Positions 7,806-37,963 of a stretch of DNA of 64,000 nt are shown piece by piece. The position numbers and the translations under genes were made by a program. The stretch is from a virus, in IMG/VR virus record IMGVR_UViG_3300043419_000459, positions 37,471-101,470 of that record; one strand, given 5' to 3'. Within the stretch, counting starts at the first letter, position 1. Every line of letters starts with the position of its first letter. Under the pieces are notes generated by a model that saw nothing but the letters and a program-made list of their open reading frames with translations, made no database searches and was not told the origin of the DNA.

Positions 7806-8660
7806 TTATACTCCACAAGGGTCAACTGAGATTATTTCACCTCTACTACCACTTACTTCAAATTTAATTGAACCATCTCCATCTAATCTATACCAACCAT
7901 CGATTGCAGGATTCCATGCATCTGAATTTTGATATAATCTATTACCAACTTCTATTGCCGAACCACTTGCAATATATCGGTCTACTGTATAGTTACTAGC
8001 ACATATATTAGTTTGAAGTAGTTCGTATGCTACGTTTATCATAGTATGATTACCATTTGTAATATCAAAACTCCAATTTCTTGAATTAAGTACAAAAAGT
8101 GAATCTCTTCCTATTTCGCCGGGTGTCGAATTAGTTCCACCATGAATTTCTACATATCCATCTTCCACACTACCACTAGCTAATTCTAAAAGAATGTTAT
8201 CAACTGTGGTTTGAGTAAAAGCACAATTGGAAACTATTACTTCATTTCCATCAAATCCTATTGGTTGTGTTCTAGATATTATTAATTCGGTTAATTGGGT
8301 ATTACCACTAAAATCAATTGTAGTTAATAAAGGTAAGTTAGTTATATCTACCGAACCTGTTAAATTGCAATCATCAAAATCTATAAATTCCAACGATGTA
8401 CAATCTGATAAATCAGGGAATCCTGCTGAAAAATTACTATCACTAACACGAAGTGTTTGTAATGAGGTACATCCACTTACATTAATAGATGTTAAACTAT
8501 CGGTACCAGTTCCGGGTATATCGTTACGGTCTACATCAATAAGAGTAAGTGATGACATTCCAGAAAAATCAACAGATGTTAAACTATTGTAATCTGCTTG
8601 AAAACTTTGTATATTTGTTAGGTTTTGTAAACCTGTAAATGAAGTTATTGTTGCTCCCAT
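7806..8660 (-). CDS. Leucine-rich-repeat protein
   Basis: LxxLxxL-type repeats (LTSVDFSGMSSLTLID, LTSINVSGCTSLQTL, LSDCTSLEFID, ITNLPLLTTIDFSGN). Confidence 0.75.
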   Translation of the reverse strand: MGATITSFTGLQNLTNIQSFQADYNSLTSVDFSGMSSLTLIDVDRNDIPGTGTDSLTSINVSGCTSLQTLRVSDSNFSAGFPDLSDCTSLEFIDFDDCNLTGSVDITNLPLLTTIDFSGNTQLTELIISRTQPIGFDGNEVIVSNCAFTQTTVDNILLELASGSVEDGYVEIHGGTNSTPGEIGRDSLFVLNSRNWSFDITNGNHTMINVAYELLQTNICASNYTVDRYIASGSAIEVGNRLYQNSDAWNPAIDGWYRLDGDGSIKFEVSGSRGEIISVDPCGV

Positions 8661-9156: not shown

Positions 9157-9747
9157 TTAGTTTAATTCTATTATAATTTCTCTCATTAAATCTTGTGACT
9201 TACACCACTTACCACATTCCTCTGCTACTTTTGCCCATTGTTTTGATTCGTTCATAGGAGCCATAAATGCACCATGTGTTGATGGGTTGGATACAAAGTC
9301 CCAACCAACCAATTCGAAGTCTTCCTGAACCATTAATGTACCATCATTGAGTTCTTTTACTGAACCCAATCCTCTACTACTAATACCCAAACGAATATTG
9401 TTTTTCAATAATTCTTTTAATATATTTCCAGATGGAGTTGAAAGTATTTCTACCACACCACATACATCATCCCCTTCCCAATAGATTTCTCTAATGTTAT
9501 GAGATACATTTTTTAAATTGATTACGGGAGAATCTGGATGGTCTAACTCACCAAGAGCTCTTCTTTCCTTAATAAGTTGTTCGTATTTCTTACACTCTCT
9601 TTCTAAGATTTCTTTTGGATATCTTCTATGATTTTGATTTGGAGCACCTGCTCTTTGTAGGATTCCCTTAACTAAATAAGTTCCGTTTTCTTCTTGTTGA
9701 AGTTTTGCTTCAAACAGATGGGTTTCTATTAATAATCCTTTATTCAT
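9157..9747 (-). CDS. gp21: Prohead core protease (T4 gp21-like)
   Basis: NQN.R.YP, RALGELDHP, TPSG.I, GISSRG.GS, DFVSNPS..GA motifs. Confidence 0.95.
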   Translation of the reverse strand: MNKGLLIETHLFEAKLQQEENGTYLVKGILQRAGAPNQNHRRYPKEILERECKKYEQLIKERRALGELDHPDSPVINLKNVSHNIREIYWEGDDVCGVVEILSTPSGNILKELLKNNIRLGISSRGLGSVKELNDGTLMVQEDFELVGWDFVSNPSTHGAFMAPMNESKQWAKVAEECGKWCKSQDLMREIIIELN

Positions 9748-10139
9748 TATTTTAAATCCTTTTTAACTTTTTCAATTGCCGAACCACTCATTGGTGTCCA
9801 AGATTTGATAAGTATGGTCTTTAATTGATTTTTCAATTCAGTTTCATCTAGCTCACCATTTGTACTATCCACCATTTTAATTATCTGCGTCTTAATATAC
9901 CCCATATTAACAATATCCTCTGCGGTATTATTGTCAATTCCTTTTTTCGGGTCAATCATTTTAGATATATCTTCAATTACATTTTTATTATCTGCAATCG
10001 AATCTAAAATACTTTTAACCTGTTTTTTATAATTTGGTTTTCCTTGGAAATATTTCATTCCTTTTTGTGCCAAATCTACGATATAATAAAAGATAATCTT
10101 ACCAATGAGTATAGAACCAATTGTGGTCATTACACCCAA
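9747..10139 (-). CDS. Hypothetical protein with hydrophobic N-terminus; probably the -1 frameshift extension of 10154..10462
   Basis: Weak TTG start; its frame stays open upstream (GTA GAT GAG AAT CTT ATA TTG) into the A10 slippery run. Confidence 0.6.
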   Translation of the reverse strand: MGVMTTIGSILIGKIIFYYIVDLAQKGMKYFQGKPNYKKQVKSILDSIADNKNVIEDISKMIDPKKGIDNNTAEDIVNMGYIKTQIIKMVDSTNGELDETELKNQLKTILIKSWTPMSGSAIEKVKKDLK

Positions 10140-10167
10140 TATAAGATTCTCATCTACTTTTTTTTTT
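10095..10167 (-). other. Putative -1 programmed ribosomal frameshift signal
   Basis: A_AAA_AAG heptamer (10163-10157) in frame immediately before TAG; 8-nt spacer; stem-loop at 10148-10095. Confidence 0.7.
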
Positions 10168-10462
10168 CTTCGTTTTTAGCTCTTAATGCTGCTAAATCGG
10201 AACCTTCTATTTCACCATCCTTATCGACATCAATTTTCTTTTGGCCGGCAGTTAGTTCTGCTTCGTTATATCCCCTCAATCTACCTTCTGATTTTGCTTT
10301 CGATGCTTTATCTACCGCATTAAAAAATGCTTTCTTTTCATCATCAGACATATCTCCCAATGATTTACCGGTTTTATCTAACATATGTTTAAACAATTGT
10401 TGATAATCATTTTCTTCTTTTACAACTTGTCTAATAAGTTCTTTTAATTCTGTATGTTTCAT
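10154..10462 (-). CDS. Small putative internal head protein with DxDxDG (EF-hand-like) motif
   Basis: KKIDVDKDGEIEGSDLAALR motif; N-terminal LKELIRQVVKE. Confidence 0.65.
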   Translation of the reverse strand: MKHTELKELIRQVVKEENDYQQLFKHMLDKTGKSLGDMSDDEKKAFFNAVDKASKAKSEGRLRGYNEAELTAGQKKIDVDKDGEIEGSDLAALRAKNEEKKK

Positions 10463-11058
10463 TATTCTGATATTTGTCTGATTTTTTGGTCTAATTTAAT
10501 TAGTCTTTCTTTTATACTATAAATATGACCATTTGTCCTTTTCCAATAAGATTTATTATCAACACCACTTTCATTTTTTATTTTACCATACCAATTAAGA
10601 AATCTTTCCATTTCTTTCAATTGTTTGTTGATATTGGATATACCTCTACCAATTTTAGCCTGTGCGGTTGATTCCTCATTTTTCAAATCCAACCAACGAT
10701 TTTCACTTACTACACTATATCCCGTTAAATCAGCTTGTCTTTTACCTTTTTTCTTTTCGTTTTCAGGTTTACCAAATGCAGCTGGTGTGTTGTATCCTTG
10801 TACATTTCCGGTTACATTCATTTCATCAATCATTTTTTCTCTAACAATTTGACGAATTTTCTCTTTAAGTTGTTTAATTTGTTCTTCCTTTTTATCAGGT
10901 AATCCTTTATGAGAAGTAGATGCAAAATCTTTAACATCTTTGTCAGACATATCCGCTGCTACTTTTGCAACTTCCGGTGATGGGTTTTCCATATCACCTT
11001 TTTGAGCGGCGTGAACCATACCCATAAATCTTTGTTGTGCTTTTGATACTGCTGGCAT
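10462..11058 (-). CDS. Hypothetical head-module protein (DUF3008-like N-terminus)
   Basis: MPAVSKAQQRFMGMVHA...DFASTSHKGLP module common in T4-like phages. Confidence 0.6.
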   Translation of the reverse strand: MPAVSKAQQRFMGMVHAAQKGDMENPSPEVAKVAADMSDKDVKDFASTSHKGLPDKKEEQIKQLKEKIRQIVREKMIDEMNVTGNVQGYNTPAAFGKPENEKKKGKRQADLTGYSVVSENRWLDLKNEESTAQAKIGRGISNINKQLKEMERFLNWYGKIKNESGVDNKSYWKRTNGHIYSIKERLIKLDQKIRQISE

Positions 11059-36552: not shown

Positions 36553-37963
36553 AACTTTTTGTTTTTACATTAATCATTTTGTGTCTGTTATAAATAGTAT
36601 CAATTGATAAAAGTTCGTAATTCATATTATTTATACCATCATTCTTATAATCAATTTCACCTTGTTGCATTTTTAAAATATATCTTCTTTCATTTCTCGC
36701 AGTAGTTTCACCCTTTGCCCACTTATCTATACCACCTTCATTTATCAATCCTTCCGTTTGGTGAGGTAAACATCTAAATTTACCATCTCTTCGAAATGGT
36801 AATATGGTGTGTGGTATTTCTATTTTTTCTTTTTTTAATTCTACATTTTCAAAATCACCAAATTCTAAATTCATAGTAAAAATATCTAATACTAAATTAT
36901 CTTCAGGAGTTTCTTTATGTATGTTTTTAATTTCTTTTGGAGTTAAACACCTATCCCACATTTGTATACTTGCAACACCACCTTTGAAAAAAGACTCAAC
37001 AGGTGATTTTGAATATCCCACATAAAATGGTTCCATACCATATCTTTTAAGTGGTTCTGTATATGATAGTGGTGATTGTGTTCCTGTTCCTAATCTTGCA
37101 TCACTTTCTCTACCATTTAAGTAGAAATGTATTTTTTGGTTTTCCGCATCTACTGCCATTGTAATCCAACTCCATTGATTTTCATATCTTTTAATCCATT
37201 GATATAAATGTCCTTTCATTCTATCCCAAAGTTGCATTGTATATGCTCTACTATTATTAAAAGATAATCCCCAATCGTATCCTGGTTTTCTAAATATTGG
37301 GTATTCCATAAATTGTCTATTAGTATCACCGATTAACCAAATAGGAACTTTTTCAATTTGTTGTTCTGCTTTTACTAAAATCGAAACAGTATGAGATTCC
37401 GATATACAACTCTTTTGCTCTCTTGATGGTCTGAATTGAATTTTTGAATCTATACCATTAAAATATGCAACATATTTTTCTTCATTAAAATCTAATTTGG
37501 TTTTTTCAGCATATCCTTCCATTACACATCTCCAAAATAAATCATCATCTTCCATACCCCAATCCCAATAATCATTTGAGTAACCATTGGTTTTTTCTAC
37601 TTGTTCCTTTGAAAATATAACAGCACCACCAAAGTATTCTTCATACTTTAATTGATAATCGGATTGAGAAATACGAACTGCAATATGTTGTGGGTTTCCT
37701 TCCGGAAATGAATAATCACAACTATCATCTTCCGGTACCATATCAATATCATGCCATACAATGTAATCACATCCGTCATTGAATGCATGTTTAGCGGCAA
37801 TATTCTTCATTAAACCTCTATTGAAAAGTTTATCGTCACATTGGTGTGCTAAATAAATTGTATGTTCAATTCCTTTTTCTTCTAAGAATTTACTAACATG
37901 GGGAACAAATATATTCATATGTTCCTCTCTATTTCTATATGGTACGCATACTCCTAATTTCAT
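36545..37963 (-). CDS. GT7 (beta-1,4-galactosyltransferase-like) with inserted LamG-like domain
   Basis: VPYRNR, FNRG, HDID, YFGG, NGYSNDYWDWGMEDDD. Confidence 0.85.
   Translation of the reverse strand: MKLGVCVPYRNREEHMNIFVPHVSKFLEEKGIEHTIYLAHQCDDKLFNRGLMKNIAAKHAFNDGCDYIVWHDIDMVPEDDSCDYSFPEGNPQHIAVRISQSDYQLKYEEYFGGAVIFSKEQVEKTNGYSNDYWDWGMEDDDLFWRCVMEGYAEKTKLDFNEEKYVAYFNGIDSKIQFRPSREQKSCISESHTVSILVKAEQQIEKVPIWLIGDTNRQFMEYPIFRKPGYDWGLSFNNSRAYTMQLWDRMKGHLYQWIKRYENQWSWITMAVDAENQKIHFYLNGRESDARLGTGTQSPLSYTEPLKRYGMEPFYVGYSKSPVESFFKGGVASIQMWDRCLTPKEIKNIHKETPEDNLVLDIFTMNLEFGDFENVELKKEKIEIPHTILPFRRDGKFRCLPHQTEGLINEGGIDKWAKGETTARNERRYILKMQQGEIDYKNDGINNMNYELLSIDTIYNRHKMINVKTKSYE

Follow-up and report, generated by a model that had tools for sequence, protein, structure and literature searches.

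How is a conserved protein produced when its reading frame lies in the -1 frame relative to that of the preceding gene and lacks a usable conserved start codon? This question is raised by two adjacent open reading frames (ORFs), here called ORF1 and ORF2, in the head module of a T4-like freshwater phage. They lie on the minus strand of a stretch of 64,000 nucleotides (nt) that was analysed as a whole and is referred to below as the window (positions 37,471 to 101,470 of IMG/VR record IMGVR_UViG_3300043419_000459, a 101-kb virus contig with an estimated completeness of 54%). To the extent that sequence by itself can tell, recoding at a run of ten adenines (A10) between the two ORFs is very probable. 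With less assurance, we consider it likely that the locus carries a conserved programmed -1 recoding signal, mainly ribosomal and with transcriptional slippage probably adding to it, that doses a protease-releasable cargo. Taken separately, the mainly ribosomal route appears somewhat probable, and the functional part, a Gag-Pol-like dosing of head cargo released by the prohead protease, is put forward tentatively. The elements of the junction are the following:

10154..10462, minus strand: ORF1, an open reading frame for a putative leader module of 102 amino acids (aa), ending GAA GAA AAA AAA AAG TAG
10158..10167, minus strand: the A10 slippery run, which holds the in-frame heptamers A_AAA_AAA and A_AAA_AAG (the latter at 10163-10157)
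10154..10156, minus strand: the zero-frame stop TAG, directly after the slippery codons and kept in relatives
10176..10178, minus strand: the TAA that closes the -1 frame upstream and limits the shift to a 19-nt overlap
9747..10157, minus strand: ORF2 as read after the shift, 136 codons plus stop (from GTA at 10157-10155 to AAA at 9752-9750; stop at 9749-9747)

Once past the TAA, the -1 frame is open for 142 codons up to the stop at 9749-9747 and reads K-R-R-K-K-K-V-D-E-N-L-I-L-G-V-M, so the zero and -1 frames overlap by only 19 nt, the run included. The zero frame contains a slippery heptamer of the X_XXY_YYZ type (A_AAA_AAG), and a -1 shift on it would yield a product of 102 + 136 = 238 residues, the unshifted product having 102. 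An earlier note on this DNA, made from its letters, had given the coordinates of ORF1, the A10 run with its in-frame A_AAA_AAG, the -1 reading into ORF2 and the products of 102 and 238 aa, the longer with a hydrophobic segment; all of this holds on the sequence. By composition, the run alone would not be surprising; it is, however, the only A/T run of at least 10 in the window, against about 10 matches in dinucleotide shuffles. The weight of evidence is its conservation in relatives. Four other AAAAAAGTAR sites in the window were considered as recoding sites and rejected as ordinary in-frame coding.

Conservation was examined in 64 distinct junction sequences of IMG/VR relatives, which come from roughly 60 IMG datasets. 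ORF2 lies in the -1 frame in 62 of them, and its identity among relatives falls to about 47%. Among these 62 junctions the run is A10 in 41, A11 in 19, A12 in one and A9 in one, so that a run of A10-12 followed by a -1-frame ORF2 is kept in 61 of the 64, the junction with A9 being one more. The zero frame closes in one of five ways:

51 junctions: xAA AAA AAA AAG TA[AG]
5 junctions: AAA AGG TA[AG]
4 junctions: AAA AAA TA[AG]
1 junction: AAA AAC TAA
1 junction: AAA AAG AAT TAA

All 62 have A_AAA_AAA or A_AAA_AAG in frame, and the zero-frame stop is the very next codon in 61 of them (in the remaining one, L151, it comes one codon later). Run length varies together with the preceding codon, and the frame relation is therefore kept. 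In many relatives the -1 frame opens just 2 nt into the run, which means that the shift must occur inside it. The first codon after the shift is always xTA (GTA, CTA, ATA or TTA, that is, Val, Leu or Ile) and, because the overlapping -1 codon always has this form, the zero-frame stop is preserved through replacements among these three residues. From the run onward the peptide K-K-K-[V/L/I]-x-E-N-L is conserved, and the conserved positions in the ORF2 frame are the second codon positions; dN/dS was also tried over this short region and was too noisy to use. In two relatives (L027 and L079), ORF1 contains another long in-frame run, A9 (Q-K-K-I-D), which precedes the junction run by about 80 nt.

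The relatives also bear on how ORF2 could otherwise be started. In most of them, the first ATG, GTG or TTG in the ORF2 frame is found 75-87 nt past the run, beyond the conserved hydrophobic helix described below, and one relative has none of these codons in that frame within 150 nt. The window itself has an ORF2-frame TTG at 10139 and an ATG at 10130, 18 and 27 nt past the run. Additionally, in 20-odd distinct relatives without ORF2, ORF1 (97-103 aa) is directly followed by the protease gene, and no run longer than A7 is present.

A second element of the signal is found downstream of the run:

10095..10148, minus strand: the core of a 3′ stem-loop that begins 8 nt past the heptamer, with weaker outer pairs to about 10085-10158

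The arms are as the earlier note had drawn them (10148-10095). The 91-nt stretch that forms the hairpin folds with -23.7 kcal/mol (z = -3.8), a stability that was reached by none of 200 shuffles. For the 85 nt after the run, the energy is -22.2 kcal/mol, whereas 82 tiled segments of the same length on the same 14-kb strand average -10.4 and reach -17.9 at best. A long stem-loop just after the run is likewise formed in every relative (median z = -2.75 for 49 relatives and the window). A structure compiled for a 30-sequence alignment pairs 84.6% of the cells, against 40-60% when the partners are slid, a percentage that is biased upward since the structure was drawn from per-sequence folds of the same sequences; its covariation is 0.196, against 0.03-0.10 with slid partners. 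The clearest pair joins the first base of a Leu codon (in E-N-L) with the third base of a Lys codon (in G-K-I), where both changes are synonymous: codons of the CTT type occur with AAG and TTN with AAA (concordant in 46 cases, discordant in 6). A tree of the remainder of ORF2 gives seven independent contrasts, of which three to four are compensatory and none is opposite (sign test p = 0.125). Of the features that the earlier note had proposed to look for in related phages, slippery site, stop and hairpin are kept, and covariation has the right sign, at a level that is suggestive. No conserved 5′ hairpin was found in the 60 nt upstream of the run (window z = +0.84, median -1.1). Overall, the evidence from predicted RNA structure is supportive, not conclusive.

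Several lineages depart from the common arrangement. In L099 (L099:3001-4049) and L100, ORF1 has 200 aa, the A10 run lies in frame, and ORF2 is a separate gene with its own ATG and an ATGA overlap; the hairpin signal is gone (z about 0). Their standalone ORF2 starts with a 10-residue leader that resembles a T4 capsid targeting sequence (CTS), ends in L-I-E and, in L099, is very like the N-terminus of another head protein at the same locus. The ORF1 of these two relatives has a different extension of 100 residues, and their counterpart of the neighbouring 198-aa protein has grown to a 578-aa E-S-V-N-E polyprotein. L060 and L082 have a 70-residue insert in ORF1 and nonetheless retain the -1 relation across A11-TAG. 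L007 and L117 (IMGVR_UViG_3300008113_002210) have lost 46 nt from the C-terminal part of ORF1, and ORF2 is thereby left in the +1 frame across A11, which makes this either a defective genome or a case expressible by flexible slippage only. Finally, P0127 is an in-frame deletion fusion of ORF1 residues 1-90 with the C-terminal part of ORF2.

What the shift would join can be judged from the two proteins. ORF1 consists of two long helices, an invariant EF-hand-like loop (D-x-D-x-D-G-x-I-x-x-x-D) and a further helix, carries an L-K-E motif at residues 6-8 and has a mean column identity of 86% over 18 relatives. The two halves were modelled separately, and in the alignment of the fused protein, which contained both, they were misaligned; the AlphaFold2 model of ORF1 has a pLDDT of 75 and a pTM of 0.48. 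A full HMMER search with ORF1 gave 593 clusters (50% identity), in which its module of about 95 residues nearly always forms the N-terminus of proteins that range from 100 to 947 aa. In the tails of these proteins, after the module, the triplet V-N-E occurs 203 times where 8 are expected (25-fold), mostly as E-S-V-N-E. The first [V/I/L]-x-E lies at a median of 8 residues past the module (V-N-E in 46, V-D-E in 12 and I-N-E in 7 of 94 proteins). The long members are strings of 50-95-residue modules divided by [V/I]-N-E, and a Pfam scan of ten of them detected no domain. Judged by these sequences, a large family of predicted head polyproteins has ORF1 as its N-terminal leader module; a match to capsid proteins was looked for in ORF1 by Pfam, PHROG and fold searches, and none was found.

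The product of ORF2, with a mean column identity of 66% among the relatives, in which it stays open, is modelled as all-helical (pLDDT 86.9, pTM 0.80), and a BFVD search with this model gave one uncharacterised relative of 204 aa. Two features stand at its beginning:

10149..10157, minus strand: V-D-E, the first three codons after the shift, a candidate cleavage site for the prohead protease ([V/L/I]-x-E in every relative)
10077..10145, minus strand: a hydrophobic helix of 23 residues with an invariant Gly-Lys inside, from hydropathy, alignment and the AlphaFold2 model

The long first helix is of the membrane type by predicted hydropathy, as each of the 22 relatives scored has a 19-residue Kyte-Doolittle mean of at least about 2.0. 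Its invariant Gly-Lys coincides with the 3′ arm of the hairpin, where AAG ATT pairs with AAT CTT, and RNA constraint may explain the odd charged residue within a hydrophobic helix. With leader, KKKK, V-D-E and cargo in succession, the shifted product has the layout of the family, which here is apparently reached by frameshift, not by in-frame fusion. The T4 prohead protease gp21 cuts after L/I-x-E, and the internal proteins of T4 are loaded via N-terminal leaders of 10-19 residues that gp21 removes (PMC9026906). The location of the present genes in a head module, beside a protease of the Peptidase_S77 family, is that of gp21-processed internal proteins.

From these elements, the following mechanism can be proposed. 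Most ribosomes would stop at the TAG and release the 102-aa ORF1 protein, and a fraction would slip back one base on the A run, most likely with lysine tRNAs re-pairing in tandem on A_AAA_AAG, a step in which the neighbouring stop codon and the hairpin, with its strong stem starting 8 nt downstream, would assist. These ribosomes would read on into ORF2 and produce the 238-aa fusion, the yield of which is probably raised by slippage of RNA polymerase on the same A10. Because ORF1 appears to be the leader module of head polyproteins, the fusion would carry the ORF2 cargo into the prohead, at a fixed low ratio, and the neighbouring gp21-type protease would cut at V-D-E, just past the shift site, to free it. 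The sequences directly show the signal itself and its conservation, the absence of a separate start for ORF2 and the family layout, whereas the slip, its rate, the packaging and the cleavage are what we infer from them. That the leader of about 95 residues, common to hundreds of head polyproteins, targets its cargo to the prohead is a tentative proposal, and it is no less tentative that the cargo, once freed by the V-D/N-E cut, may work within the capsid, at the membrane while the particle assembles, or in the next host. The earlier note had suggested prohead tethering or a role at ejection for the longer product; the new evidence points to a more specific role, as a leader-linked cargo cut by the prohead protease. 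The site may have originated when a leader-cargo gene that had been in frame lost one base from its poly-lysine linker.

Several observations weigh against this mechanism or parts of it. A_AAA_AAG, on which the tandem slip is proposed, is not universal (AAA AGG in five junctions, AAA AAC in one), A_AAA_AAA being the heptamer present throughout. All relatives keep at least A9-10, over the seven bases that a ribosomal site needs, and this minimum, together with the avoidance of runs of at least 8, fits polymerase slippage as well or better. Regarding the hairpin, RNAalifold retained just the outer helix, the compensatory changes are suggestive (p = 0.125), the fold differs in a subgroup with V-V-x-E-G, and the arms also encode conserved residues, so that protein and RNA constraints are entangled. 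As for the proteins, ORF2 has no Pfam match and no PHROG family, ORF1 has no PHROG family and just sub-threshold Pfam matches to Dockerin and EF-hand, and Foldseek searches of the PDB with the two models returned nothing for ORF1 and no solved fold for ORF2. In addition, the P3 residue of the candidate cleavage site is Val in the window, compared with Leu or Ile in T4.

How far these points go depends on the explanations set against them. Transcriptional slippage could be the main or sole route, with the polymerase adding one A on A10-12 in some transcripts, ordinary translation of these yielding the fusion, and the hairpin serving another purpose or none. Slippage by the polymerase is favoured because runs of A9-12 are universal and runs of at least 8 are avoided genome-wide. 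The run at the junction (A10; A9-12 in relatives) is at or above the threshold of about 8-9, every relative has at least 9-10 A and usually 10-11, and in the whole window A/T runs of length 8 number 8 compared with 23 in dinucleotide shuffles, those of length 9 number 1 compared with 8.4, and those of at least 10 number 1 compared with about 6. Runs of 5-7 are as frequent as in the shuffles or slightly more so, and depletion thus begins at the threshold reported for polymerase slippage (PMC6211511). Moreover, the +1 arrangement of L007/L117 would be rescuable only by flexible polymerase slippage, and rare database variants have one A more (P0013, a Logan contig) or one A fewer (P0018, a JGI contig), although these are singletons and could be sequencing errors. 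By contrast, the conserved structure sits 3′ of the run, at the spacing typical of ribosomal stimulators, whereas the one well-studied stimulator of transcriptional slippage is a 5′ hairpin, and none is conserved here; the strictly retained adjacent stop has no role in it; and the hairpin signal disappears where ORF2 has its own start. It is because of these three features, the 3′ hairpin with its spacing, the stop and the loss of the hairpin in that lineage, that the ribosomal route is favoured, and slippage as the main or only route seems rather unlikely. Some slippage on the A10 run is nevertheless hard to avoid, and the earlier note had rightly left the choice open to both.

The remaining explanations would do without recoding. 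ORF1 and ORF2 could be two ordinary genes, ORF2 starting at the TTG 10139 or the ATG 10130, or by re-initiation past the stop of ORF1, and the A run merely encoding lysines. The two codons are there, ORF2 is indeed separate in L099/L100, and public gene callers give it as a protein of 103-134 aa, but in most relatives no start codon occurs up to the end of the conserved helix, conservation of the peptide begins at the run, the -1 relation is found in 62 of 64 junctions, and the run vanishes where ORF2 is absent, which leaves this arrangement very improbable. Even less probable is a homopolymer assembly error or a recent inactivating indel, with the true gene being one ORF of 238 aa or ORF2 being in decay. 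Homopolymers are error-prone, and P0013, with its additional A, encodes an in-frame fusion of 242 aa. However, about 60 distinct sequences, drawn from about 60 datasets, share this frame break with differing runs and flanks and a constant -1 relation, ORF2 stays open and conserved, and just one of 241 database proteins similar to ORF2 is fused, almost all the others being truncated gene calls. The earlier note had allowed for its own refutation by a single-ORF assembly error or by relatives without slippery site or hairpin; the former is excluded by near-identical contigs from other samples, which also have A10, and the relatives keep run, stop and hairpin.

If the mainly ribosomal mechanism with added slippage is adopted, the signal works like the cassettes of E. 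coli dnaX and of insertion sequences (IS) of the IS3 family (IS911, IS150), where A_AAA_AAG on lysine codons is also followed by a 3′ stem-loop and the products have a common N-terminus (PMC5009743). It differs from them in having no conserved upstream Shine-Dalgarno-like stimulator, a run of 10-12 A instead of 7, a zero-frame stop that abuts the site, a shifted product that is longer than the unshifted one (shorter in dnaX) and a location in a phage head module. With Thermus thermophilus dnaX, Shigella spa13/mxiA and the IS elements that use slippage, it shares an A run of at least 9 that gives trans-frame products (PMC5009743, PMC6211511). Unlike these systems, it has a conserved 3′ hairpin and an adjacent stop, and no 5′ hairpin was found.

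Phage recoding is known almost only from tail chaperones, extensions of capsid proteins and a few enzymes (PMC5009743, PMC10885494). The tail chaperones G/GT of lambda are likewise encoded in a morphogenesis operon with a conserved -1 shift that fixes the ratio of short to extended product (PMC5009743), but the present site has the portal and the prohead protease on its two sides instead of tail tube and tape measure, its proteins are unrelated and its slippery sequence differs. In the capsid extensions (T7/T3 10A-10B, Lactobacillus phage A2, Listeria A118/PSA), a frameshift in a head gene also extends a fraction of the molecules C-terminally; here, by contrast, the upstream ORF does not encode the major capsid protein, and the extension is a hydrophobic-helix protein after a likely protease site, not a surface domain. 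The site consequently belongs to neither of the well-known classes of phage frameshift, and no report of a frameshift joining an internal or cargo protein to a head-targeting leader was found in a literature search.

For the proposed function, closer parallels may be found elsewhere. In retroviral and totiviral Gag-Pol, a -1 shift joins a structural module to a cargo at a low ratio and a viral protease frees the cargo (PMC5009743), a likeness that is drawn by inference, as packaging and cleavage here are predicted from sequence, in a DNA phage with unrelated proteins. The genes for the T4 proteins IPI-III and Alt also lie beside a Peptidase_S77 protease, their leaders or linkers end in hydrophobic-x-Glu, and one leader serves diverse cargoes (PMC9026906). 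In T4, however, the leaders have 10-19 residues, compared with a folded leader of about 95 here, the motif is L/I-x-E, not V/I-N-E, and joining of a cargo by frameshift has no counterpart.

The genes around the junction complete this picture. On the minus strand, the head module has the order portal, proteins of 291, 75 and 198 aa, ORF1, ORF2 and prohead protease, the outer two being identified as follows:

13967-12222, minus strand: portal, from Pfam and PHROG annotation of the window proteins
9157..9747, minus strand: prohead protease, Peptidase_S77 (T4 gp21 type; Pfam PF03420, E = 2.6e-30)

The ATG of the protease gene overlaps the stop of ORF2 (TAATG, window 9745-9749, minus strand), and a similar stop-start junction (TAATG or TAATATG) joins ORF1 to the protease gene in relatives without ORF2. 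If the protease is translationally coupled to ORF2, the frameshift rate could also affect its dose. The protease carries L-I-E at residues 6-8 (window 9724-9747, minus strand), which parallels L-I-E-9, the candidate autocleavage site of T4 gp21 (PMC9026906). The 198-aa protein (window 10462-11058, minus strand) has a DUF3008 N-terminus, the sole part of the region with DNA-level matches to cyanophages, of which one is annotated as 'virion protein' and the rest as hypothetical. Inside the head module, downstream of the protease, there is also a leucine-rich-repeat protein of 284 aa (window 7806-8660, minus strand). Neither a terminator nor a promoter was found at the ORF1/ORF2 junction, and no tRNA genes were found in the window. 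Among cultured phages, Microcystis phage Mel-JY01 and Flavobacterium phage immuto come nearest by their protease. The 291-aa gene is present in both, and in Mel-JY01 the 198-aa protein is matched as well, with a marginal match of the 75-aa protein (E = 0.2). ORF1 and ORF2 are absent from both phages, and tblastn searches with them against cultured phages gave no match.

The set of junctions amounts to about 60 natural variants of one cassette, in which run length (9-12), the last codon (AAG, AGG, AAA or AAC), the sequence of the hairpin and the presence of ORF2 vary, and in which one lineage has swapped the shift for a start codon and a short leader. Such a series lends itself to telling ribosomal and polymerase slippage apart, in hosts where Shine-Dalgarno sequences may not be used. 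The annotation of the family is corrected as well, as public gene calls truncate ORF2 at arbitrary internal starts. If the proposed reading is true, a tailed phage would use a Gag-Pol-like strategy, in which a frameshift in the lysine-rich linker of a leader doses one membrane-helix cargo.

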